Shown here: positions 1 to 12,939 of the stretch, piece by piece
How positions within the stretch are numbered: the first letter of the stretch is position 1
How the letters are laid out: each line of letters starts with the position of its first letter
DNA from: a virus
Reading direction: 5' to 3' (one strand)
Length of the DNA: 64,000 nt
IMG/VR virus record: IMGVR_UViG_3300021185_001461
Coordinates: 57,229 to 121,228 of that record
Notes under the pieces: model-generated
Seen by the model: the letters and a program-made list of their open reading frames with translations, nothing else
The model's database searches: none
Told to the model about the DNA's origin: nothing
Made by a program: the position numbers and the translations under genes

Positions 1-1640
1 GTAATTGTTTTTGTACTTAATCCGCCTGGTGCGTTTGGCACTGCATTAACTTGAAAAGTTAAGCTGGCCGAATCTGTTTGAGCTGTTATATCTGGAGTAC
101 CTGTTGCAGTAAAATCTAATTGATAGTTACCAGGTGTTACTCCTGTAAAATCATGTTGGACACTGTTTAGTCCTGCTTCATTGTCATTAGCACTGCCATC
201 GTTCCAATCGTATTCATGATTGTCACCATTTTCACTTGTGTTGTTTACAGTAACTAATGCTCTGTTTACGCCGTTATAATCTACGCCATCATAAACATCA
301 TATATGTTATCGCCGTTACGGTCTGAAACTGTATCAGCACTACCTGAGATGTTAGCTCTAACATCTGGTTCTACATGAATTACAAAGTCTGTACTTTCAA
401 AAGGACTGCTAGTGTGATTACTTACAACTTGTAAGTTACCTGTATAATCTGCTGGCGTACTATTATTTGAAAGTGTGTACTTGTGTGTTATTGTTCTTCC
501 GGTATCACCGCTTTGATTACTTCCTGCGTTTACTGTTGTAATTGTTCCATCACCAAAATCCCATCTATAAGTTGTTCCATATGTACTGTAACTTCCTATA
601 GTATTTTCAGTGTTGTTAGTAAATGTTACTGTTAATCCTGCATTTGATTCTTCATTAATACCTGTTGTAATATTTGAAGTAGTATCAGGTGTATGGTCAT
701 CATATATTTTATACGAAGCATCATCATCAAGTGGGAGTATTGATGGCGTAGCTGTGCTATGACTGTCTAATGTTAGTGTAACGGTTCTTTGTACTTCTGC
801 TTCTGTACTAAGAGCAAACGTGTGAGACAATCGTCCTCCGCCTACACCGCCTGCTACACTATCGCTATTAATAACATCATCTGCGGAACCATCACCCCAA
901 TCCCATGTGTATTGAATTACTGCTCCTGATGTGTTAGTTGTTGTATTTTCGAAATAGACAGTATCGCCATCATCCCAATATGTAATTGCGTTGCCACCAG
1001 TTGGTGCATCGTATACTACAAATGAAACTGCTGGATCGCCTGTAAAAATTGTTATATAATCTTCTCTTATTTTAGTAGAAGTTGAACCTGTTCCAGATCC
1101 ATTATTATTAAAAGCCGTTACTGTTACATCAAACGGGCTTCCTGTGTTAGTTGAATAGGTATGAGTTGGAGTTGAATCTGTTGTTGCAGTTGTTGAGGAA
1201 CCATCGCCCCAATTAATAGTATATCTGTTTGGATTTCCGTCAGCAGTAATAGTAAGAGTAGAAGTTAGACCTGCGCCGCCTGTAACAATGTTAGCAGTAA
1301 AATCAACGCCTTTAACAAATGTATTATTCTGTACGTTTAGAAGTGCTTCGTTAATATCATCAATAGCATCACCTACTGTTGTAGTACTTAACCATCCTTC
1401 AATTGCACCGTCTGTCCAACTACTGTCTGAACTTACACCTAATGTTAAATCAATAGCATTACTACCACCACTATTTGCTTCTAGGTATGCTTTTGTTACA
1501 AGATCTTGTTGATCTACTGGATCAGATGCGTTTTTAACAATCTTCGCTGAAACATCAATATTACTTGTGGATCCTGCATCTAATATTAGGTCAGATTCTG
1601 ATTTAATTTTATCTGCCTGATGATTTATGTTTATAGCCAA
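1..1640 (-). CDS. PKD-repeat virion structural/adhesin-like protein (partial, runs off the window start)
   Basis: Missing from the ORF track. Manual translation from TTG at 1640 (GAGGA RBS upstream) gives MAININHQADKIKSESDLILDAG..., with repeated PKD-like motifs YTINWGDGSS..PTHTY, YTWDWGDGS, YRWDFGDGT. Thr/Ser/Asn-rich. Confidence 0.8.
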   Translation of the reverse strand, partial: MAININHQADKIKSESDLILDAGSTSNIDVSAKIVKNASDPVDQQDLVTKAYLEANSGGSNAIDLTLGVSSDSSWTDGAIEGWLSTTTVGDAIDDINEALLNVQNNTFVKGVDFTANIVTGGAGLTSTLTITADGNPNRYTINWGDGSSTTATTDSTPTHTYSTNTGSPFDVTVTAFNNNGSGTGSTSTKIREDYITIFTGDPAVSFVVYDAPTGGNAITYWDDGDTVYFENTTTNTSGAVIQYTWDWGDGSADDVINSDSVAGGVGGGRLSHTFALSTEAEVQRTVTLTLDSHSTATPSILPLDDDASYKIYDDHTPDTTSNITTGINEESNAGLTVTFTNNTENTIGSYSTYGTTYRWDFGDGTITTVNAGSNQSGDTGRTITHKYTLSNNSTPADYTGNLQVVSNHTSSPFESTDFVIHVEPDVRANISGSADTVSDRNGDNIYDVYDGVDYNGVNRALVTVNNTSENGDNHEYDWNDGSANDNEAGLNSVQHDFTGVTPGNYQLDFTATGTPDITAQTDSASLTFQVNAVPNAPGGLSTKTI

Positions 1641-1711
1641 CTTCTTCTATTCCTCACAATTTCGCTTCGCTCTTGCGTTTTTGTATTTATTTTGTTTTTT
1701 CTAGCTTTGCT

Positions 1712-2311
1712 TTATGCTATGCTAGAACCATAAACAGAAAGAATAGACCAACCAGAACTTGTATAAATTAAATCTATACTTTGTCCTGCTGTTGTAAAAG
1801 ATATTGTATTAAAACCATTTGCAGTATCCGGTGTTACAACTACTGTACCACTTGGTGCTGATATAACAACTATTGTTTTTCTTTCACCTACTTCTCCATT
1901 TGCTAAACTTAATGCCAAATCAGTACTTACATCTATATACAACATTCCTGTTGTGCTAGAAGATGCTGAGTTTGTTACTGATTGCGGTATTGTTACTGCT
2001 TTTTGAGAATAAGATGTATTCCAAGGTTTTATAGTGCTACCTATGTTATATATGATCCCAGAGGCTGTGTTTGGAATAACATGGCTGCTTATATTGGCAT
2101 TTATTGCCAATGAGCCTCCTCCATTGCCTAGTGATATAACATCTCCGTTTACTAAAAGAGTTCCACCTACATACATATTTCCTGATGTATAATGGCCTCC
2201 TTTAATATGAAGTGCTGCACCTACTGGATCAACAGGAGATACGCTAACGTCTAATGCATTAGTGCTTTCAATTACTAGTGTTCCAGAATCTGGGTTAATG
2301 TGTGATGACAT
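1712..2311 (-). CDS. putative virion/tail-fibre-associated protein
   Basis: 199-aa Ser/Thr/Gly-rich beta-type ORF; late-type box (ATAAATA on minus) near 2349-2355. Confidence 0.6.
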   Translation of the reverse strand: MSSHINPDSGTLVIESTNALDVSVSPVDPVGAALHIKGGHYTSGNMYVGGTLLVNGDVISLGNGGGSLAINANISSHVIPNTASGIIYNIGSTIKPWNTSYSQKAVTIPQSVTNSASSSTTGMLYIDVSTDLALSLANGEVGERKTIVVISAPSGTVVVTPDTANGFNTISFTTAGQSIDLIYTSSGWSILSVYGSSIA

Positions 2312-2417
2312 AATACTTTTTCCTACTACTTCCTATTATTATATATGTATTTATCAAAGACAGAGAGTTTTTGCTGCTCAAAGAAAAAGACGCTCTAAAG
2401 CGCCTTTTAAAAAATAA

Positions 2418-2628
2418 GCAAAATAGGTAGGACTCGGTTATACCTACAAGCACGTACACAGAATACCATTCTATCACGCACAACCTAGTTCCGCTCGGTA
2501 GAGCAATGTGATCCTTAGTCTCTCAACCTCGAACCTGGGTACCACCCCTAACTAGTCAAGTTCGACCCTTCTGGTAAAGGCCTCTTCCTTGCACTATAAA
2601 CAAAAGTTAATTATTCTCTTGTTGCTAT
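2418..2628 (-). ncRNA. candidate structured ncRNA (~175-nt core, pseudoknotted), family unassigned
   Basis: ORF-free and GC-richer than its flanks; several complementary segments (see findings); own sigma70 promoter at 2635-2663. Confidence 0.6.
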
Positions 2629-2634
2629 GTACTT

Positions 2635-2663
2635 AATATACAACGTTTTTGCATAAAGGTCAA
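2635..2663 (-). promoter_or_regulatory. sigma70-type promoter for the candidate ncRNA
   Basis: TTGACC-17nt-TATATT on the minus strand. Confidence 0.65.
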
Positions 2664-2681
2664 CCTTTTTTTTAAAAAAAA

Positions 2682-2834
2682 TTAAATTTTTTGTAATCTA
2701 GGGTCTGATGCAAGAATATTCTTGTCAGCACGTGGTCTTGACAATGGTCTTTGCAGTTGTTTTTTGTGAATTGCTTTGTGTGATCGTTTAGTACGCTCTT
2801 TTTTACGAGCTATTTCGAAGTCTCTATGATTCAT
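2682..2834 (-). CDS. small basic protein (50 aa) downstream of a glutamine riboswitch
   Basis: Manual translation: MNHRDFEIARKKERTKRSHKAIHKKQLQRPLSRPRADKNILASDPRLQKI*; AAGGA RBS upstream. Confidence 0.7.
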   Translation of the reverse strand: MNHRDFEIARKKERTKRSHKAIHKKQLQRPLSRPRADKNILASDPRLQKI

Positions 2835-2858
2835 AACACTCTTCCTTTTAAAGTTAAG

Positions 2859-2904
2859 TGCGTTCCTTCGCTAGTGCTACTTCCGTCCTAATTTAGGATG
2901 AACG
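2859..2904 (-). promoter_or_regulatory. glutamine-I riboswitch (glnA RNA motif)
   Basis: Minus strand reads CGUUCA-UCCUAAAUUAGGA-CGGAAGUA-GCACUAGC-GAAGGAACGC: P1 CGUUC/GAACG, P2 hairpin, GGAAGUA/GAAG E-loop and short P3, matching the glnA motif as I recall it. Confidence 0.8.
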
Positions 2905-2908
2905 TGAG

Positions 2909-2940
2909 AAAAAAATAGGCCCAATAAAGGGCCTATTTTC
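2909..2940 (-). terminator. rho-independent terminator of the capsid operon
   Basis: AAAATAGGCCC-tttatt-GGGCCTATTTT followed by a T-run on minus, just after the gp23 stop. Confidence 0.85.
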
Positions 2941-2967
2941 ATATTGAATATGTATTCTAGTAAAATA

Positions 2968-4131
2968 TTACTGGAATGACAAGTTACCTGAGTTAACATC
3001 AATTTTAGATAGGTAATCAGCTGCGTTACCAAGAGATGAAGCTTGGTTGTTTAGCTCAACATAACCATAACGTGTCATAAATGATACTGTTGGTTCGAAT
3101 GTTGCCGGATCTAATACTGTGCCTGAGCTCATTAGTGGGATGTATGGGCAGTAAAATGCTGCTGCATCAATCTCACCGTCGCCTTTATAGCCAACTAGTA
3201 CTGGAGCATTATCTGCCGCGTACTGGTCAACAAAAACACGCATAGTGCCGTTCAAAGTACCAACAAATTTAGTGTTAGTTGGAGCTTCGAATGGTCCTTC
3301 AGTTGTTCTTGCGAACGCTGAAGTTGTTGCACTTTGTAGTACAGTTAACATTGTTGGTGAAATAACAACGTAGTTACCTGCGCCTCTACGTGTACGTGCT
3401 GCGATTAAGTTAGCTGATCTGTTAATAAGAACTGCCAACGCCGCATGCTGGTCTCCAACAAACGTTGCTGTACCAGAAACGTTACCCTGGTCATATGTGT
3501 CTGTTGCCGTACCCGCTAATGTGCGAAGTGAAGTTAAAACTTCTTGATCAATCTCAGCAGTAATTTCTTGTGCAAGTGCTTGCATAATTTCTGCTTCAAC
3601 GTCTAGACCGTGCATTGAATTAGCATCTTGTGCCGCTTCAAAAGTCCAACGTGCTGATAATTTACGTGTTTTCGCTTCAACAGTTTGTTTCAATACTTGG
3701 ATTGAAAGCTTCTTACCAGCTTCTGCCTCTAGTGCTGAAGTTGAAGTTGCTGTACCGTTTGATGCGTCACCTGAGTAACCTTTTGCAATTGCGAAAGGTG
3801 ATAGTGCTTCATCACCAGCTGTTACGCCAGCTGCTGTTTGGCCATATCTTACTCTTAATGTGTGAATTTGTCCTACTGGACCTGTCATAGGTTGTACACC
3901 TACTAGTTCGTTTGCGATAACTGTTGGCATCACACGACGAATAACTGGAAGAATCACTTTGTTAAGTGATGCTACGTTACCTGCCATAGTTGTGCCAGCA
4001 TTAGCTGATTCTGAAAGGTAGCCCTTAGTGTTTTCTAGGACTGATTCCATTACAACCTTTTTGTTACCTTCTAAGCCATCTGTAAGGGCGTCTTTTGTAA
4101 CGTCCCAATTTTCAAATAGATTCTGTGTCAT
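2968..4131 (-). CDS. gp23: major capsid protein (T4 gp23-like)
   Basis: Motifs GVQPMTGPVG, TVEAKTRKL.A.WT.E.AQD, AFYCPYIPL, FMTRYG. Confidence 0.97.
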   Translation of the reverse strand: MTQNLFENWDVTKDALTDGLEGNKKVVMESVLENTKGYLSESANAGTTMAGNVASLNKVILPVIRRVMPTVIANELVGVQPMTGPVGQIHTLRVRYGQTAAGVTAGDEALSPFAIAKGYSGDASNGTATSTSALEAEAGKKLSIQVLKQTVEAKTRKLSARWTFEAAQDANSMHGLDVEAEIMQALAQEITAEIDQEVLTSLRTLAGTATDTYDQGNVSGTATFVGDQHAALAVLINRSANLIAARTRRGAGNYVVISPTMLTVLQSATTSAFARTTEGPFEAPTNTKFVGTLNGTMRVFVDQYAADNAPVLVGYKGDGEIDAAAFYCPYIPLMSSGTVLDPATFEPTVSFMTRYGYVELNNQASSLGNAADYLSKIDVNSGNLSFQ

Positions 4132-4143
4132 TTGGAATTCTCC

Positions 4144-5241
4144 TTAGTTGATTCCTGCTAACTTTTTAAGGTTAATAATTTCGGCTTTACTATCAGTTTC
4201 CTGAGTCGTGTCTGCCTTGTTACCGGTAATCTCAGTCTTCTGAGATTCTGTTAGTTTTTGTGACTTAACTGGGCTTGATTCGTTTAATACTGTTGGTAAG
4301 TATTTGTTGAATTGAGCTTTAAGTTTACTTGTGCTTACGCTTTCAAGTAAATTGTTCATTAATTCACGCTTATCTTTAGATAGTGGAGACATAAGTTCAG
4401 TCATAACTGCCTCACGCTCACGGCTTTCATTGATCTTCGCAACTTGTTTTTCTGCTACATCAATCTTTGCCTCTCTATCTGCAATTTCTTTTTGTGATTC
4501 GTCAAGTTGACTTTTCACATCTGAAAGTTCTTTTGAAAGTTTTGAAATGTGTGTTCCTTCAGCTATATGAGAACTCATAAACTCAGCTGCAAAAGTTTCG
4601 AACAATTTACGTCCGAACATATTTTCTTTTGCTTGCTTGATGTCTTCTTTCAACGTACCTAATTCTGTTGACAATGTTGTATCAACAATACTAGCTAGTT
4701 TGCCAGAAGCTTTGTTTATAAAGTCTTCTTTTGCTTTAGTGATCATTTCTTTACCTTCCGCGACAAGTTTTACCTTTTGTTCAATAAGGTCTTTCTTATC
4801 ACTATGGAATTCATTAAGTTCTGAAGTAAGTTGTTCCATCACAAAATCTTCTAGCTTCTCAAAGTTGCCTTCTTGTAGCTTTCTGTCTTTGCGTAGTTCT
4901 GTAATTTCCTTGTTAAGCGTTTCCATAACAAACTTATCAAGTATTTCTGCATGTTGCGAAATTTGACGTTTATACTCAACTTGAGCTTCTACTGCCGCTT
5001 TTTTGTCCGCTGCAAATTCTTTCAATTCGGTATTAATCGTATCTGATACCATGGCATCTAGTGCTTCCACCATTGATGTCTTATCAGTTTCGTACCTGTT
5101 AGCGAATTCTTCACGTAATTCAGCAGTGATCTCTTCACGAGCTTCTGTTAAACGTTCTTCCCATGCTTCTGAAAGTGTTGAACGCACTTCCTCAGAAAGG
5201 ACTTCGGAACTTAGGAGTTGTTCTATTGCATTATTAGCCAT
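4144..5241 (-). CDS. gp22: prohead core scaffold protein (gp22-like)
   Basis: Glu/Lys-rich coiled coil lying between the protease and the major capsid gene. Confidence 0.85.
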   Translation of the reverse strand: MANNAIEQLLSSEVLSEEVRSTLSEAWEERLTEAREEITAELREEFANRYETDKTSMVEALDAMVSDTINTELKEFAADKKAAVEAQVEYKRQISQHAEILDKFVMETLNKEITELRKDRKLQEGNFEKLEDFVMEQLTSELNEFHSDKKDLIEQKVKLVAEGKEMITKAKEDFINKASGKLASIVDTTLSTELGTLKEDIKQAKENMFGRKLFETFAAEFMSSHIAEGTHISKLSKELSDVKSQLDESQKEIADREAKIDVAEKQVAKINESREREAVMTELMSPLSKDKRELMNNLLESVSTSKLKAQFNKYLPTVLNESSPVKSQKLTESQKTEITGNKADTTQETDSKAEIINLKKLAGIN

Positions 5242-5871
5242 CTAGCTTCTCCTAATGTTTAGTTTTTCAATGAACTTTAATACTTCCTTCTGGAGGTATG
5301 TTTCGGCTAAATTATCGTCTTTTGCCGCAGCAGCAACGTCAAGTAAGATGTTACCACGATGACCATTCATAATTTGTTCATATAAAGGATCTGGGTAGGC
5401 ATCTGGTGCACTTGGGTTAGCAACAATATCAACAGTTTGTATTTCAAAATCACTGACATTACCGCTTTCTGCTACATTACCACTACCTCTTGACGAAACG
5501 CCAAGTTTTACTCCATTCTCTAATAGGGTTTTACAAATATTTCCCATCGGAGTAGGTAGCAATTTTAAACGACCATAACCGTCTTGACCGTCCATCCACA
5601 TTTTTTCAATCATGTGAGATACACGGTCTAAATTAACTTGCAAATCATCTGGATGATCTGCTTCGCCTAATACTGAATAACCAGTTTCAATTTTTTCTTG
5701 TATTGCCTTAACGGCTTTTGAAATTTCATTAACTGGATAAACTCTACTATTCTGATTACGCTTGTCACCTTGTACAAAGATACCTTGCATAAACAAGTTC
5801 TTACCTTCCTGATCTGACTCAGTAATGATTTTCGCTTGATCATAACTTAGATTCTCTTTAAGTGTAAGCAT
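5242..5871 (-). CDS. gp21: prohead protease (gp21-like)
   Basis: Motifs GIFVQ..RN.N.RVYP, LGEADHP, LGVSSRGSG, DIVANPSAPDA. Confidence 0.95.
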   Translation of the reverse strand: MLTLKENLSYDQAKIITESDQEGKNLFMQGIFVQGDKRNQNSRVYPVNEISKAVKAIQEKIETGYSVLGEADHPDDLQVNLDRVSHMIEKMWMDGQDGYGRLKLLPTPMGNICKTLLENGVKLGVSSRGSGNVAESGNVSDFEIQTVDIVANPSAPDAYPDPLYEQIMNGHRGNILLDVAAAAKDDNLAETYLQKEVLKFIEKLNIRRS

Positions 5872-5873
5872 AA

Positions 5874-6728
5874 TTAGTTACTCTTGCCTTTTTTCTCAGC
5901 GCCGTGTCCTTTTGGTTCTGCTTTAAGATCGCCTGCCTCTTGTGGGCCAGTTACGTTCATATCTTTAGCATCGCCTGTTAGACCTTTTTTTGCACCTTCT
6001 GAAGATTTCTTAGACATGTCTACTGCTTTGCCGCCCATGTCGTTCTTACCTGCAACTGGTGACGCTTTACCGTCATCGCCTGCTGGCATACTTACTGGAG
6101 CTGCTTTTAGTTCTGCACCTTCTTCGATTTCTTCTGAGTCTTCATCAGTTTCAGCATCAGTTTCTTCAATTACTGGAGATACTGCTTCTTCCATTTCTGG
6201 TTCCATTTCTGGTTCCATTTCTGGTTCCATTTCTGGCATAGCTTCTTCTTCTGAATCACCCATTACTTTGGCAAATTCTGCTTTAAGATCAGCTAGTGCG
6301 TCTTCGACGTTTACTAACTTATCTTCAATTTCTTCATGCTCTTCTTCGTGATCGTCTGTTTCACCGTCACTGTCGAAGTCCATGTCGCCATCTTCATCAG
6401 ATAGTTCCATTTCAGCTTCTGGCTCTGTTAGCTCAGATTCAGGTGCGTCTTCGCCCTCTTCATCTTCGCCGTACATTTCCTCGGCTTTAATTTCCTCATC
6501 GTCTTCTTCGATGTCGTCGATAAAGTCATCAGCTTTTTCTCCGCCGATCGCTTCATCTATTTCTTCTTCCGCTACTTCATCTTCAACAACTTCGTCAGCT
6601 TCGACTAGGTCATTCCAGATTTCACGTGCTTTTTCTACGAATGCTTCGTGTAATAAATCAGAAGCTTTTGCTTCTTCACCATTAACTAGGCTTTCTATCA
6701 CTTTAATATAACGTTCGCGAGTACTCAT
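5874..6728 (-). CDS. highly acidic prohead core protein (gp67-like position)
   Basis: Asp/Glu-rich; the likely start is ATG 6728 (AAGGAG RBS) rather than 6785; lies between portal and protease. Confidence 0.7.
   Translation of the reverse strand: MSTRERYIKVIESLVNGEEAKASDLLHEAFVEKAREIWNDLVEADEVVEDEVAEEEIDEAIGGEKADDFIDDIEEDDEEIKAEEMYGEDEEGEDAPESELTEPEAEMELSDEDGDMDFDSDGETDDHEEEHEEIEDKLVNVEDALADLKAEFAKVMGDSEEEAMPEMEPEMEPEMEPEMEEAVSPVIEETDAETDEDSEEIEEGAELKAAPVSMPAGDDGKASPVAGKNDMGGKAVDMSKKSSEGAKKGLTGDAKDMNVTGPQEAGDLKAEPKGHGAEKKGKSN
6189..6236. repeat. 12-bp tandem repeat x4 (encodes MEPE repeats)
   Basis: TTCCATTTCTGG repeated four times. Confidence 0.95.
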
Positions 6729-6862
6729 TTGACATTCTCCTTTATCGAGGTTATAACACATGTATTTAGTCTTACTGCTAGGCAAGATATCTTAAATACA
6801 AAAAAAACCGCGGTTTTGATGCCACGGTTAGGGTTTTATGCATTATAAGTGTATATTACTTA

Positions 6863-7057
6863 CTATGCTTCGGGGCTAGCGCCGTACTGTAGTTGCACAT
6901 CTTCTATCTTATCTGCATGCTCACTACGAGTCATTTCGCGTCTATTACGCATTTTATTTAGATGTTTTAGCGTCAATTTAGGTCTACGAGTATCATCCTC
7001 GTCCCATTTATTGAAGTTATCATCTTGTTCGTTTTGTGCTAATTCATTAAATCGCAT
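6863..7057 (-). CDS. small head-module protein
   Basis: MRFNELAQNE...DTRRPKLTLKHLNKMR...LQYG; the ATG overlaps the end of the portal gene. Confidence 0.7.
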   Translation of the reverse strand: MRFNELAQNEQDDNFNKWDEDDTRRPKLTLKHLNKMRNRREMTRSEHADKIEDVQLQYGASPEA

Positions 7058-8720
7058 CGTCTGGTACTCCTGTGTCTCCACCTAGATCGGCATCGCCACC
7101 GTCTGTTGGTAGATCATCTAATCCTTCGTCACCGGCATTCTCTGCTCCTACATCTGTAGGTTCAAAACTATCTACGTCTGAGCCTCTTAGACCCATTCCG
7201 CCTAAGTCACCTGTTGCCGATCCTGCTGGCTTGTTACCAGCTTGATTTTCTTCTTTCCACATTCTTTCATTCTCAACCATTTCTTCTTCGTTAAGTCCCA
7301 AGTATCTTTGAAGTATAAATCTCTTAGATAAGTATGGAACTGCTTCAATAGAACTGAATAGGTTTGCCTTTTGAGCATCAATTTCAATGTTTCTATATTG
7401 TGAGAAACTTTGTGGTTCAGTAAATGATAAATTAAATAAACTAGCACTAACATCTAGTCCTCTGTGCTTACAGAATAATTTAAACTCGTGGTCTAATGTT
7501 TGTTGTAGTGTTAGTTGTAATCTTTCACAATACTTTGCAAAACGGAATTCTTGGATCATTGCAGTACCAATACGTCCGTCATTAAACGCCGCTATACCGT
7601 CTTCACTTCCAGTTGGAAGGTACGATGTTGGTACACGAAGTCCACGCATTAACTTGTTATTAAAGTACTTTAAATCATCAATCTCACCAAGGTTTTCACC
7701 GCCTGGTAATACTTCAACTTTAGATCCACGTCCTTCTGCTGTTTGGGCAAAGAAGTAATCTTCCATAATTGATAATGGGTTATATGAAGCGTCAACAACT
7801 TTTGTACCACCACCACTCATATTTGGAATACGTGTTTGGTGTACTTCGTTTTTAACTCTTTCCACAAAGCCCATTGCCTTGTGTGCTGGCATGTTACCAA
7901 CATCAATATAAAATACTCTACGTTCTGGTGCACGTTGTACACGATAGATAATAATACTGTCTTCTAATAATTCTTTTTGTTTATATACTTTAAATACTGG
8001 TTCTAGTATACTGTCACCAAATGGCCAGTTACTGTTCATTCCATCACTTAAACTAACATGTACTATATGTTTTGAATCTACTGCAAACTCTGAATTTTGT
8101 CCGCCTGATGAATTTGGTGTTACAATTCCTGCATTTCCTTTGCCAACTGTATAACCTGTTGTTGGATTTACCGCAGTTGCATCAGAATGTTTTTTAGTAT
8201 CAGTTGCAACCATGTCTTGTAAATTAAGTGCAATATTTTTAATAATGTACTGATCAATTTCTCTGCCTTCGCTTTCGTTAACAATAGCTTTGGCAACATC
8301 GCCTGGTTGAACAAATATAAGTTTATATGTTTCTGGATCTCTAATAAAAAACTGATCACCGTATTTGATACATGATCTAAACATAGTAAATATTCTACGT
8401 TCGAGATTATTAATATTAACCCATTGTCTTAGTGTGGTTTCTAATGCAGTTACTTCCGAATCTGTTGGAGTTGTTTTATAGTTGATTTCAAAAGGCAAAC
8501 TTGATTCTGGATCTACTTGTGTACTAAATTCTGCAATAGTATCTAATGCCGCATTAATTTCACTGTCTTGATCCATTTGATCATACTGTGTATAACGCTC
8601 AATACGATTCGGTTGGCCCGAATATACTTCTGGTAACCAACTTTGCCAGCGGTTTGTTTTAGCATTACCACTGCTACTGCCAGATGGGTCGTATTTTGTA
8701 AAGTGTTTTTTCCAACTCAT
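7047..8720 (-). CDS. gp20: portal protein (gp20-like)
   Basis: Motifs LLEDSIIIYRVQRAPERRVFYIDVGNMP, MEDYFF, LPGGENLGEIDDLKYF. Confidence 0.97.
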   Translation of the reverse strand: MSWKKHFTKYDPSGSSSGNAKTNRWQSWLPEVYSGQPNRIERYTQYDQMDQDSEINAALDTIAEFSTQVDPESSLPFEINYKTTPTDSEVTALETTLRQWVNINNLERRIFTMFRSCIKYGDQFFIRDPETYKLIFVQPGDVAKAIVNESEGREIDQYIIKNIALNLQDMVATDTKKHSDATAVNPTTGYTVGKGNAGIVTPNSSGGQNSEFAVDSKHIVHVSLSDGMNSNWPFGDSILEPVFKVYKQKELLEDSIIIYRVQRAPERRVFYIDVGNMPAHKAMGFVERVKNEVHQTRIPNMSGGGTKVVDASYNPLSIMEDYFFAQTAEGRGSKVEVLPGGENLGEIDDLKYFNNKLMRGLRVPTSYLPTGSEDGIAAFNDGRIGTAMIQEFRFAKYCERLQLTLQQTLDHEFKLFCKHRGLDVSASLFNLSFTEPQSFSQYRNIEIDAQKANLFSSIEAVPYLSKRFILQRYLGLNEEEMVENERMWKEENQAGNKPAGSATGDLGGMGLRGSDVDSFEPTDVGAENAGDEGLDDLPTDGGDADLGGDTGVPDDAI

Positions 8721-8758
8721 AATGTGTGCCTTTTATTGTATTTGTATTTATCCATCTC

Positions 8759-10906
8759 TTATTGATGTAATCCTGCCGCTAAGTTATATTGATCATTCAT
8801 ATCATTTCTATTTTCTATTAATGCTCTATCTTCATGTACTTTTATTTGTTTTTGAATTGCATCATATTCTAATTGGCTATTCTTCATCATTGCAGAAATC
8901 AAATCAGGTCTACCTGCAGCCATTTTATTACTAATTGTACGCTCTTTCATAAGTTCTGTCAACCTATCTTTTAGTTCAGGTAACGTAAGTTCGGCTATTT
9001 CTGCTAATACTAATTGATTTGAGCCCGAATCTGGCGTTATTGTTTCAGTGGCACTTGCATTTTCTGGTGATACAGATGAATTTTCTGCATCGTCATCATT
9101 TGTTTGATGATATTGTTTAGCCCAGCTATCAAGAAAGCTACGTGACATATCATTTGTATTTTCTTTATACTCGTCTGTGGTATTAATGTCGTTTATTTCA
9201 ACTGATTGTGCAGAATTTTCTGCTGCGTCAATACTGCCTTCATTGGATGTTGTTTCTGGGTTTTCTTGTCTATAGTCTTTAAATAGATCAGCAAAGAAAC
9301 CTGCACCACTGGCTAGCATTTCTGTTGTAAGTTTTAATTTATCAGCTAGGGTCTGCATATCCAGTGTAATAAACTCTTGTGCAGTTAAAAATGCTTTTGA
9401 CATATTATTCATTGCAACTGTTGCCGTGCCTGATTCAGCATAGAGTTCTTTTAGTCTTGCTGATTCTTCTTCCAGTTCTACTCCGTCTAGTCCTGCCATA
9501 TTTTTCATAATTAAAATAATAGTATCTTGAAAGTCTTGAGCTCCGCCTAATAATGTTCCAGTGGCTGCGGATGCGGCCAACTTATCTAAGTCTGCTGATT
9601 TAAGAATATCAAAAATCATAGTAGCTGAAATTTCTCCATTAGATGCTTCTGCTTCTCTAACTGCGTTATTAATATCATCTAGCATATTTGGTGCAATTGC
9701 TTCAATTAGTGCTATTGCGTTTTCATCAATACCTGCCAATACTTGTGTAATATTAAAATTACTCATATCTCCAGAAAACTGAGATGTTGCTCTAGCAAGT
9801 GCTAATTGTATATTGTCTACTAAATTTGAAGGACCAATACCTTGAAACAATGATAATTGTTTAGTTAAATCTCCTACAACGGCAGCTGTATCTTCCATTC
9901 CTCGGTCTTCTAACGTTGATAAACCTGCTGCTAAATTTACATCACTTAATGCAGATAGCATTTTATTCATAGCTTCACTTCTACTTAAGGCTGTTAGGTT
10001 TGCTACTGCGCCTGCTTCCATTACTAGATTTTGAAAACTAGATTCTAACTCTTCGCCACCGTTTGCTAGTTTTCTATCTAATGAACCAGTTAAACGTTGA
10101 ACTTCTATATACCCTGCATATGTGTTTAATAATTCTTTATTTGTTAATCCCAAGTCTCCTAGCTCGTCTACGCTCAGTTCTACTCTCTTAAATAATTTCA
10201 TCATTGTTTGAGAACCTTTTGATACATCTCCGCCTAGGCCTACCATTGTTCCGCCAAAGTTAGCAACTGTTTCTGAAAAGGTTTTATATGTTAGTCCTGA
10301 TTGAAAAGCATCTGTATACAACTCATTAAATGCATCAGCAGTGTCAAAAACAACTGCACCACTGTCTATCATACTTTTTTGTACTTCTGCAAATTGTTCA
10401 AACTTGGCTGCATTCCAACCTGCCCATGCTAAACCAATATCCACTGCAACGTTGGCCATTTGCTTTCCTGTGGTCTTCATAAAGTGTTTAAATGGACCAT
10501 CTAGTTCTGAAGCTGCTGCAGTTAATTTACCATCGGTTCCTTTTAATTTGTTTACTACTGTTTCTGTTACTTTTACTAAGCTGGTTAATGGCTTTTCTGA
10601 ATCACCAAAAAATCCTGCGGTATCTCTTACTGCTTGAGCACCTTTTAATAATAAACTTGTTCTTGCTTTACCTTCTTTTTGATTTACGTCTGCATTGTTT
10701 ATTCCAATTTGTGTATTTGTTTTAACTGCGTCAATTATCTCATCATCTAGATCTTTATTCTTTGTTACTGTGCTCATTAACTTGCCAGTAAGTTTTACAG
10801 CATTAGCTGACTGATTGGCTAATGCTGATAATGTGGATTCACTAGCCCAAGCAGGAATTTCAAGTGTATCTTCACCTACTGGTATATTATATTTTTTATC
10901 TGCCAT
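8759..10906 (-). CDS. tape-measure-like helical protein, paralog A
   Basis: 715 aa, Ala/Leu-rich and helical; near gp26/gp51-like genes; paralogous to the adjacent ORF. Confidence 0.55.
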   Translation of the reverse strand: MADKKYNIPVGEDTLEIPAWASESTLSALANQSANAVKLTGKLMSTVTKNKDLDDEIIDAVKTNTQIGINNADVNQKEGKARTSLLLKGAQAVRDTAGFFGDSEKPLTSLVKVTETVVNKLKGTDGKLTAAASELDGPFKHFMKTTGKQMANVAVDIGLAWAGWNAAKFEQFAEVQKSMIDSGAVVFDTADAFNELYTDAFQSGLTYKTFSETVANFGGTMVGLGGDVSKGSQTMMKLFKRVELSVDELGDLGLTNKELLNTYAGYIEVQRLTGSLDRKLANGGEELESSFQNLVMEAGAVANLTALSRSEAMNKMLSALSDVNLAAGLSTLEDRGMEDTAAVVGDLTKQLSLFQGIGPSNLVDNIQLALARATSQFSGDMSNFNITQVLAGIDENAIALIEAIAPNMLDDINNAVREAEASNGEISATMIFDILKSADLDKLAASAATGTLLGGAQDFQDTIILIMKNMAGLDGVELEEESARLKELYAESGTATVAMNNMSKAFLTAQEFITLDMQTLADKLKLTTEMLASGAGFFADLFKDYRQENPETTSNEGSIDAAENSAQSVEINDINTTDEYKENTNDMSRSFLDSWAKQYHQTNDDDAENSSVSPENASATETITPDSGSNQLVLAEIAELTLPELKDRLTELMKERTISNKMAAGRPDLISAMMKNSQLEYDAIQKQIKVHEDRALIENRNDMNDQYNLAAGLHQ

Positions 10907-12939
10907 TAAAATGCTCCTTCTGTTCGCCAGTTGCTAGTAAATGAATTACTACCGGGTGCTTGTGCTTTATAATCATTATCTTTTTCTTGTAGTCTAATTA
11001 GATACTCCCTCGAGTCCCTTAATCTATCTTCTAACATCAGATACTGTGTTTCTATTGCTGATATTTGATCTTCAGTCATAAACTCTGTCTGTCCTTCAAT
11101 TATTTCGCCTGCATCATTTTTCCAATTTGGATTTTCAAATTTGTCACGTCTAATAAATTCACCGTCTTCATTCTCAAGAAGGTTGCCTTCGTCGTCGATC
11201 TCATAAAGTAGACCTCTGTTGCCTTCGATTTCTGATGCTAAAGTATCTATGTGTTCGTTTACACGAGTTATTGCGTTAGTTATATTATATTCGTTGACTT
11301 CGGCTAATCGCTTTTGGATGTTTTCTTCCTTCATCTCTGCAACGCCTTCTTCCCATCGTTCTTCGTTTCCAAATGCTCTACTAATTGCACTACCAAAATT
11401 CATAACACCATCTGACAGCACACTAAATCCATGTCCCATTGCAGAAAATCCAGGTGTTAATAATTCTTGTGCATTTTGAAATGCAATTGCCATATTATTC
11501 ATTACTTCAATGCTGGCATCTGATTGATCGGCATAATTAGCAAAGAAATCAGTACTTAATGTATCTAAGTCTGCTCTTAAAAATTCCGTACCACCTGCAG
11601 CAGTTTTGGCTGTAGAAATGAGATCATTGTATTTCTGAAGTTGAGGATCGTTTCCTGTTACTACCATCTCTGAATTTTTTAAAAGCCTAAATATTTCTCT
11701 GTACGCTTCAATTGTTTCTTGTTCGTTTTTAAATTGCCCTGTACCTAATTTTTCTACAAAGCTAATTATTTCTGCTGATGCTCCTGGAGTTGATTGTAAA
11801 GTCTTTATCCATTCTTCACTAATATTATTTGCTGCAGAATCGTCATATGAAATATCACCTACAAATCCTGCTATCATTTCTTCCATAAACATTGCAAAGT
11901 CTGATCCCATAAGTGCTTCATTCATTACTCTAACAGTACCCACTGCGTCATTGATATTTGCCTCTGCAGCCTCGCCGTATGTTTCTTTAATATGTTCTGC
12001 ATTTTGTATCATTGCTACTCTTATATCAACATTTTGTCTTGCTTCGTCTCTGAGTCTAAGTGCTTCTTCTCTTTGCATGCCAAATGCATTAGCAGTAAAC
12101 AACGCAACATTGTTTGCTGTTCTATACGATTCAATTACTCGTTTTTTAGTCTTGTCATTCATAGCAGTAATCTCGCCCAACTCATACAACGTTTGTATTT
12201 CTTGTCCAATAAATCTTGTTTGGTCTTGTATACCCATTCCAAAATCTCTAAAAGTTTTATCAGAATCAATTTCTTTTGCAAATTCGGCCATCCTTAATGC
12301 ACCTGCAAAAGCACTACCTTCGGCTTGTGTAATAAATGATTTTGTTTCAGACATTACATCTTCAAAATCTTTTAAGCCCATTCCTAAATCACGAGTTGCA
12401 TATCTTAAATTACTCCAATGATCTATGTCAGAAACTACTGCACCAAATTCAATTAGTTTTCGTGCTTGCTTTTCTTGTTCTGTTAATAATTTTGCGAATG
12501 TTACACCAAGTCCTGTTGCAACTACAAGAGGAGTACCGGCATGCCTAGCTACTCCTTTTACTATTGCGGCAAATTTACCCATACCAAAGCCCATATTAGA
12601 TACACCAATACCTGCATTTGCTAATAATTTAGCTGCTTCGTGAGATATTTCTGCTACTGCATTGGCTGGGTTAGCATCTGCTATAATCCTTGTTAATGCT
12701 CCTTGCCCAATTACCAATGTTTTTAATGTCGCTGTTCCGGCTTTGCTGGCTTTTCTTTTACCTGTCTTAGTTTCGCGAGCCATTTCTTTTATAGCTGCTG
12801 CGTCTTTTTTACTTAAAACGGCCGCAACGGTACCCATATGAATATTTTGTTCTTGCATATTACCATTTACTTTTTGCATTGTATCCTCGGATGCCCAAGG
12901 GTACATGTTATAAATGGCGTTGATTATATCTTGATTCAT
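10906..12939 (-). CDS. tape-measure-like helical protein, paralog B
   Basis: 677 aa; shares WASE.T, GAVV and MNNM..AF..AQE..T motifs with paralog A. Confidence 0.55.
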   Translation of the reverse strand: MNQDIINAIYNMYPWASEDTMQKVNGNMQEQNIHMGTVAAVLSKKDAAAIKEMARETKTGKRKASKAGTATLKTLVIGQGALTRIIADANPANAVAEISHEAAKLLANAGIGVSNMGFGMGKFAAIVKGVARHAGTPLVVATGLGVTFAKLLTEQEKQARKLIEFGAVVSDIDHWSNLRYATRDLGMGLKDFEDVMSETKSFITQAEGSAFAGALRMAEFAKEIDSDKTFRDFGMGIQDQTRFIGQEIQTLYELGEITAMNDKTKKRVIESYRTANNVALFTANAFGMQREEALRLRDEARQNVDIRVAMIQNAEHIKETYGEAAEANINDAVGTVRVMNEALMGSDFAMFMEEMIAGFVGDISYDDSAANNISEEWIKTLQSTPGASAEIISFVEKLGTGQFKNEQETIEAYREIFRLLKNSEMVVTGNDPQLQKYNDLISTAKTAAGGTEFLRADLDTLSTDFFANYADQSDASIEVMNNMAIAFQNAQELLTPGFSAMGHGFSVLSDGVMNFGSAISRAFGNEERWEEGVAEMKEENIQKRLAEVNEYNITNAITRVNEHIDTLASEIEGNRGLLYEIDDEGNLLENEDGEFIRRDKFENPNWKNDAGEIIEGQTEFMTEDQISAIETQYLMLEDRLRDSREYLIRLQEKDNDYKAQAPGSNSFTSNWRTEGAF

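Follow-up and report, generated by a model that had tools for sequence, protein, structure and literature searches.

Just downstream of gp23, the gene for the major capsid protein, an uncultured marine T4-like phage carries on its minus strand a stretch (positions 2418–2663) that an earlier note, made from the letters alone, described as an unassigned RNA of several stems with a pseudoknot and a promoter of its own. The locus raises two questions: whether this is a new class of RNA, and whether it is made as a transcript in its own right or as the leader of the gene behind it. In the reading that we favor, to which we give a probability of about 60%, it is a manA-family RNA gene that stands alone and is made by the host polymerase, and not a 5′-UTR switch at this locus. 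All positions below are those of the window, by which we mean the whole 64-kb stretch of DNA that was analyzed, part of a 121-kb IMG/VR virus record with an estimated completeness of ~33%. Loci from other records are given as L with a number.

Gene content of the locus

One manA copy is present in the 121-kb record, the search of the record itself agreeing with the result for the window. The neighboring genes, assigned by Pfam and PHROG, confirm the proposed setting in a late structural region shortly behind gp23. These neighbors are:

7047–8720, minus strand: portal protein gene, T4-type, upstream of manA on the same strand
5242–5871, minus strand: prohead protease gene, upstream of manA
2968–4131, minus strand: gp23, major capsid protein gene, upstream of manA
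2857–2906, minus strand: glutamine riboswitch RF01739 (52.5 bits against a cut-off of 35)
2682–2834, minus strand: ORF for a very basic protein of 50 aa, between the glutamine riboswitch and the manA unit
1712–2311, minus strand: ORF for a protein of 199 aa, the next gene downstream of manA, its ATG 105 nt after manA
3–1640, minus strand: gene for a PKD-domain protein (two PKD families, E about 1e-13), downstream of the 199-aa ORF

No family was found for the 50-aa ORF, and the 199-aa protein had no match in Pfam or PHROG; a homologue of the latter occupies the same position in L005. The 199-aa and PKD-domain proteins may be late-expressed structural proteins that decorate the capsid or resemble fibers. 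Just past the gp23 stop codon lies a GC hairpin (GGCCC-UUUAUU-GGGCC) with a U-run (2905–2940, minus strand), in all probability the terminator of gp23; directly behind it starts the glutamine riboswitch. Besides manA, this riboswitch is the sole Rfam family above its cut-off in the 64-kb window. A search of the 121-kb record (~33% complete) for psbA/psbD (PF00124) gave no match. Megablast of positions 1–12000 against GenBank phages found similarity confined to a stretch of ~400 nt in the portal gene, shared with enterobacterial and Xanthomonas jumbo phages, and is uninformative on the manA RNA.

Assignment to the manA family

The Rfam model manA (RF01745) matches positions 2417–2622 of the minus strand with 59.8 bits, 4.6 bits above its gathering score of 55.2 (E = 9.7e-13 for the 64-kb window), and the match covers the full model, positions 1–192 of 192. 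The window thus holds a full-length member of a catalogued family and no new RNA class. Because the match lies above the curated cut-off, the label "unassigned" was wrong; a hit to a known family, the very outcome that the earlier note had named as telling against itself, is what the Rfam scan returned. That note was right that the RNA is neither a tRNA nor a tmRNA, ARAGORN finding none in the whole window. Its suggestion of a ribozyme finds no support in the Rfam scan of the region, in which no self-cleaving family scores at E ≤ 1. RmaA, STnc40, Atu_C8, L20 leader and Glutamine-II match the region at E ≤ 1, all of them far under their cut-offs.

The family was described in 2010 as a candidate riboswitch that occurs in marine metagenomes, in T4-like cyanophages and in two gamma-proteobacteria (PMC2864571), and a paper on the cyanophage S-CREM1 reports manA by an Rfam match (PMC9964418). 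We found no ligand or in vivo function of manA in the literature. Among the phages in GenBank, Pelagibacter phage Mosig alone resembles the manA stretch at the DNA level, with 73% identity at 77% query coverage; its manA copy scores 64.0 bits and ends 22 nt ahead of a rubrerythrin gene. Several manA-like copies lie below the Rfam threshold (L013 3629–3819, L012 4296–4480, L035, L039 and L075) and are found by profile nhmmer at E from 8e-36 to 2e-4. The Rfam manA model overlooks divergent members in this phage sub-lineage.

Secondary structure and covariation

Homologues were drawn from two sources, the best 80 of 599 gp23-linked IMG/VR loci and at least 119 loci with an exact 17-mer from the 5′ part of manA. 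A single-sequence nhmmer search over the collected loci gave 135 hits beyond the window's own record, 121 of them uncut by a contig end and 99 distinct; with the six weakest of the 99 omitted, the alignment (A1, n = 94) consists of the window and 93 others. Having been gathered by 17-mer, gp23 synteny and nhmmer, A1 is biased to this sub-lineage, and in most rows the 17-mer dictates the 5′ strands of P1 and P2, which leaves these helices little room for covariation.

When the Rfam fold is laid on A1, 87.2% of the cells are paired, and 44 of the 62 pairs vary on both sides. For covariation the fold scores 0.411; shuffles give 0.157, and none of 500 scored as high as the real alignment. If the 3′ partners are slid by one to three columns, pairing drops from 87% to 37–52%. 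The window RNA itself has a folding z-score of -2.3, with five of 200 shuffles as good. The stretch is a real structured RNA, beyond chance, and it is under strong structural selection; the earlier description of a compact, multi-helix phage RNA is upheld. The helices, with the pairs that show compensatory changes in A1, are as follows.

2600–2622, minus strand: P0, 5′ hairpin ACAAGA/UUUUGU; 5/6 pairs compensatory
2594–2598 with 2422–2426, minus strand: P1, closing stem, including AUAG/CUAU (2594–2597 with 2423–2426); 2/5 compensatory; closes a core of ~177 nt
2564–2582, minus strand: P3, hairpin; 4–5 pairs compensatory, about 97% paired
2550–2555 with 2485–2490, minus strand: P4; 6/6 compensatory, 100% paired; encloses P5, P6 and P7
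2537–2548, minus strand: P5, loop L5 at 2540–2545; 3/3 compensatory, 100% paired
2509–2536, minus strand: P6; 3/6 compensatory
2491–2506, minus strand: P7, loop L7 at 2496–2501; 4/5 compensatory
2449–2482, minus strand: P8, long hairpin, loop L8 at 2464–2468; 6/7 outer pairs and a further 3/4 compensatory
2427–2447, minus strand: P9, hairpin GUAGG/CCUAC, loop L9 at 2432–2442; 3/5 compensatory, 100% paired

P1 has only two compensatory pairs because the search pattern fixed its 5′ strand; compensating changes in this stem are visible in L013, L041 and L072. Both the Rfam alignment and the fold cap the inner P6 hairpin with a GNRA tetraloop, GAGA (2521–2524), which is GAAA in most homologues. 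From the 5′ end, the conserved manA fold of the RNA runs through P0, the closing stem P1, an arm of P2 and P3, then P4 round P5, the GNRA-capped P6 and P7, and lastly P8 and P9.

All of the strings quoted in the earlier note occur where it had placed them, and four of its hairpins are helices of the family: GGCCUUU/AAGGGUC is P3 (changes on both sides in 4/5 pairs), GCUC/GAGC is P7, the long hairpin GUGCGUG-AUAGAAU/AUUCUGU-UACGUGC is P8 and GUAGG/CCUAC is P9. Two further stems do not hold. The proposed terminal stem GCAAGG/UUUUGC has no compensatory change in any of its six pairs, one of which is broken in 35 of the 94 sequences. The 9-bp stem UCGAACUUG/CAGGUUCGA has none in the seven of its nine pairs that were tested (two overlapping P3), and two of its pairs are broken in 41/94 and 57/94; its 3′ strand covaries instead as the 5′ strand of P6, with the P6 3′ strand. 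The pairing CUAGUU/AACUAG had been drawn as a crossing, pseudoknotted one. The pairing is real, being P4, and the crossing is not: the pseudoknot appeared because the 9-bp stem had been drawn, and once that stem is removed P4 is an ordinary nested helix that closes the P5-P6-P7 junction. P0, P2, P5 and P6 were absent from that description.

Promoter, terminator and late-promoter-like box

The manA stretch is bracketed by transcription signals, all on its own strand:

2658–2663, minus strand: -35 box TTGACC; TTG invariant, A and C at least 90% conserved in A1 (n = 94)
2635–2640, minus strand: -10 box TATATT; ATA invariant in A1
2380–2408, minus strand: intrinsic terminator; 10-bp hairpin 2385–2408 (A2408-U2385), loop UUAG, then UCUUU
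2348–2355, minus strand: late-promoter-like box GATAAATA, ahead of the 199-aa gene

The promoter (TTGACC-17-TATATT, 2663–2635) is sigma70-like, with 10 of 12 consensus matches, and from its spacing we infer a transcript start near 2628. The pattern TTG[AC][ACT]-N16-18-TA[TG]A[AT]T stands ahead of manA in 89 of the 94 rows of A1, which were not selected on promoter presence, so that the claim of an own promoter is borne out well beyond the single sequence. Sigma70-type promoters serve early transcription in T4-like phages.

The terminator hairpin was found by a custom script and also forms, separately from manA, in the minimum free energy (MFE) and centroid folds; since script and folding both found it, we keep it as a terminator, the built-in terminator scan of positions 2200–3100 having returned no site. 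The U-run that had been noticed after the last hairpin is present; it is the tail of this 10-bp hairpin, which starts no more than about 10 nt past manA. A terminator hairpin with a U-run lies 6–23 nt past manA in 45 of the 94 homologues, in 27 different hairpin sequences, and this diversity is compensatory evidence that the terminators are real.

TATAAATA is the late promoter of T4, and we take the box GATAAATA to resemble it. The pattern [GT]ATAAATA occurs within 120 nt past manA in 23 of the 45 terminator-bearing homologues. The leader of the 199-aa gene is conserved in L005, L007, L133 and L196.

Stand-alone RNA or mRNA leader

Under the favored reading, host RNA polymerase would transcribe the manA unit early in infection into a discrete RNA of about 245 nt (~2628 to 2380), which would act in trans and not as a 5′-UTR switch of the 199-aa gene; the latter would be served by its own late-promoter-like box. 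Rfam and the 2010 description class manA as cis-regulatory (PMC2864571). The position in a 5′-UTR on which the type "Cis-reg" is based, a trait of the annotation and no part of the model itself, is found in 49/94 homologues and not here, where the terminator at 2385–2408 parts manA from the next gene.

In favor of a stand-alone RNA, the genes behind terminator-bearing copies are unrelated to one another: besides the 199-aa protein they encode a radical-SAM protein, a cytidylyltransferase/mannose-6-P-isomerase-C protein and unknown proteins (about 150, 135 and 89 aa). In L036 the manA RNA (67.6 bits) is antisense to gp23 and to the two ORFs that come next, in a unit with its own promoter (TTGACA...TATAGT) and terminator (GGCCUC/GAGGCC). 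No gene follows on its own strand, hence there is none to regulate.

In the remaining 49 of the 94 homologues there is no terminator and manA continues directly into the next gene, so that roughly every second copy in A1 belongs to an mRNA leader. Most of these copies run into gene 32 (ssDNA-binding; Pfam gp32, E = 2e-44), which starts 64–101 nt past manA; others run into peroxiredoxin or rubrerythrin genes that start 16–26 nt past it. An exact TATAAATA lies within 60 nt of manA in 31 of the 49 terminator-less rows. In L119, L191 and about 35 other loci of A1, manA stands upstream of gene 32 with an exact TATAAATA box at or beside the last manA base. To judge from this arrangement, early transcripts of gp32-type loci would include manA as the leader of gp32, and late transcripts would lack it. 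Gene 32 of T4 is autoregulated via a structured leader.

These leaders are among the grounds for a cis-acting riboswitch or attenuator, in which the manA fold would sense a ligand or factor and set the choice between a stop at 2385–2408 and read-through into the 199-aa gene. The order of promoter, aptamer, terminator and gene on one strand is the classic layout of a transcriptional riboswitch, and the 2010 survey gives manA a "Y" for cis-regulation and a "y" for being a riboswitch, the latter meaning probable (PMC2864571). RNA-library contigs cover manA and its flanks partly and at low depth, and gp23 at high depth, gaps in this cover carrying no meaning; some low-depth contigs (depth 2–3; X2, 2327–2528, and X4, 2212–2443) span the terminator, as read-through would. 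They could equally be carried-over DNA, and because contigs of this kind cannot show ends, strand or level, we draw no conclusion from them on the boundaries of the transcript. Against a switch, the 45 terminators comprise 27 hairpin sequences beside a near-invariant manA 3′ strand, so that no conserved antiterminator or other alternative pairing is maintained, and in the window the terminator hairpin folds apart from manA in both the MFE and the centroid structure. The 199-aa gene has a GATAAATA box and a conserved leader of its own, the unit in L036 has no gene to control, and the literature yielded no manA ligand that such a switch would sense. We regard a switch at this locus as unlikely.

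The manA unit is patchily distributed. Profile nhmmer finds it after gp23 in 14 of 55 loci with at least 1200 nt of room (from the best 80 of 599), and the Rfam model matches in two of the 20 closest gp23 relatives, L005 and L007; by this occurrence it behaves as an accessory module. Such patchiness, the many contexts, the one inversion (L036) and a TTGAC after the terminator U-run in many terminator-bearing rows would also be expected if the unit were a mobile cassette of the PeSL type in the hyperplastic region behind gp23, selected as a recombination-prone module with the RNA as its passenger. PeSLs are described as motifs that combine a terminator with a promoter and bring about shuffling in T4-like phages (PMC4122927). 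Compensatory changes in 44/62 pairs and the 100% pairing of P4, P5 and P9 speak of strong structural selection on the RNA, which disfavors a passenger role, and mobility and RNA function can coexist; a mere cassette seems improbable.

That the stretch is instead a hitherto undescribed ribozyme or a novel class of RNA in which a 9-bp stem is crossed by a pseudoknot, as first proposed, has next to no chance of being right: the complementary strings do occur in this single sequence, but the full-length RF01745 match refutes a new class, the 9-bp and terminal stems combine zero compensatory pairs with many broken cells (n = 94), and no ribozyme family reaches E ≤ 1 in the region.

Loop contacts and possible self-assembly

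The loops of the window RNA read GUGGUA (L5), CUACCG (L7), UGGUA (L8), UAUAACCGAGU with AACCG (L9) and the GNRA loop GAGA (L6). L5 and L7 are complementary here as UGGUA/UACCG. At least four contiguous L5-L7 pairs can form in 73/94 homologues, against a mean of 40 (maximum 53) with shuffled letters and 43 (maximum 57) with permuted partners in 300 trials. Switches between loop classes keep the pairing, for example GUGG/UCAC to GUUG/CGAC. L5 is also able to pair with L9, in 81/94 homologues. Complementarity between L8 and L9 (56/94) stays within the range of shuffled letters (mean 51, maximum 62), and kissing of L8 with L9 is not claimed for A1. Judged by their letters, L5 and L7 are complementary and appear to covary across the family, in a manner that fits contacts within one molecule and contacts between molecules equally.

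The 2010 paper marked "pseudoknot?" in manA (PMC2864571, figure legend), which corresponds to this L5-L7 pairing. A preprint of July 2026 describes manA RNAs that form pentamers, decamers and a 60-mer T=1 RNA-only cage in vitro, with L5-L7′ and L8-L9′ kissing loops and a GNRA-receptor contact as interfaces (bioRxiv 10.64898/2026.07.01.735769). This assembly work is unreviewed and used other manA sequences at 10 mM Mg and about 3 mg/ml RNA (same preprint); our helix numbers are equated with those of the preprint by order only. By analogy with these cryo-EM structures of other manA RNAs, L5-L7 could be an intermolecular kissing contact that lets the RNA oligomerize.

A wider proposal can be built on this. 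In a large part of the family, manA would be a free-standing early RNA of the host polymerase and no cis-regulatory leader; it would self-assemble through L5-L7 (and the GNRA loop) into pentamer-based particles in the infected cell and act in trans, for instance by tying up some factor of the host or the phage or by serving as its scaffold, and promoter, manA and terminator together would make up a mobile "RNA gene" module of marine T4-like phages. We offer this tentatively, as a possibility that is on balance doubtful.

Other structured RNAs downstream of gp23

The order of the window, with a glutamine riboswitch followed by manA, recurs in L007, L066, L142 and L159, and also in L039, where the manA-like match is weak (nhmmer only). 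L004 has two tandem glutamine riboswitches after a tRNA. In cyanobacteria, glutamine riboswitches control small factors that inactivate glutamine synthetase, and by analogy the 50-aa phage peptide behind the riboswitch might be a counterpart of these factors.

In many relatives a third RNA, freshwater-2 (RF02980; 52–77 bits), lies after the manA terminator:

L142: 5474–5556, freshwater-2 RNA
L120: 8197–8282, freshwater-2 RNA
L066: 5230–5313, freshwater-2 RNA
L041: 5390–5471, freshwater-2 RNA
L039: 4702–4784, freshwater-2 RNA
L075: 4156–4238, freshwater-2 RNA
L098: 2398–2467, freshwater-2 RNA
L022: 4160–4235, freshwater-2 RNA

Several of these copies stand behind a GATAAATAC box and ahead of a gene for a protein of ~150 aa ("MGRPLNKR...") without a known family. 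The 64-kb window has no match to RF02980. Behind gp23 there seems to be an island of structured-RNA modules that can be exchanged, namely glutamine riboswitch, manA and freshwater-2.

Relation to known systems

With manA as catalogued in RF01745 the window RNA has in common the full-length model match, helices P0 to P9, the GNRA-capped P6, a GGUGGU-type L5 opposite an ACC-containing L7, and a marine T4-like phage as its carrier. It departs from the annotation as a 5′-UTR element in that this copy is closed by its own terminator and does not stand directly before a gene. Its nearest relatives are in a sub-lineage that includes Pelagibacter phage Mosig, whereas the carriers listed in 2010 were T4-like cyanophages and two gamma-proteobacteria (PMC2864571). 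The cage- and decamer-forming manA RNAs of the preprint (bioRxiv 10.64898/2026.07.01.735769) belong to the same Rfam family, and their L5-L7, L8-L9 and L6 GNRA elements are present here by sequence; in A1 the L8-L9 complementarity does not exceed the controls.

The PeSL cassettes of T4-like phages (PMC4122927) share with the manA unit an early-type promoter and a stem-loop terminator that bound a variably present module in a plastic region with conserved genes on both sides. PeSLs, however, are short joints, composed of terminator and promoter, at the borders of protein genes, whereas here the signals bracket a conserved structured RNA. The glutamine riboswitch (RF01739) and the freshwater-2 RNA (RF02980) are neighbors of manA downstream of gp23 with folds unrelated to it; the ligand of the former, unlike that of manA, is known, and a small ORF follows it immediately.

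Implications for the manA family

What this locus adds is genomic context for an orphan family and not a new class. For the sub-lineage this context can be put in numbers: a sigma70-type promoter of its own precedes manA in 89/94 cases, a terminator of its own follows in 45/94, and at least one copy is antisense to all of its neighbors. An own promoter, a frequent terminator and an antisense copy argue that many manA RNAs are independent small-RNA genes and not mRNA leaders, and this evidence sits poorly with a purely cis-regulatory label. If many of them are independent, looking for a downstream gene under the control of a ligand may be misguided, and the formation of cages in vitro would gain a plausible free transcript in vivo.
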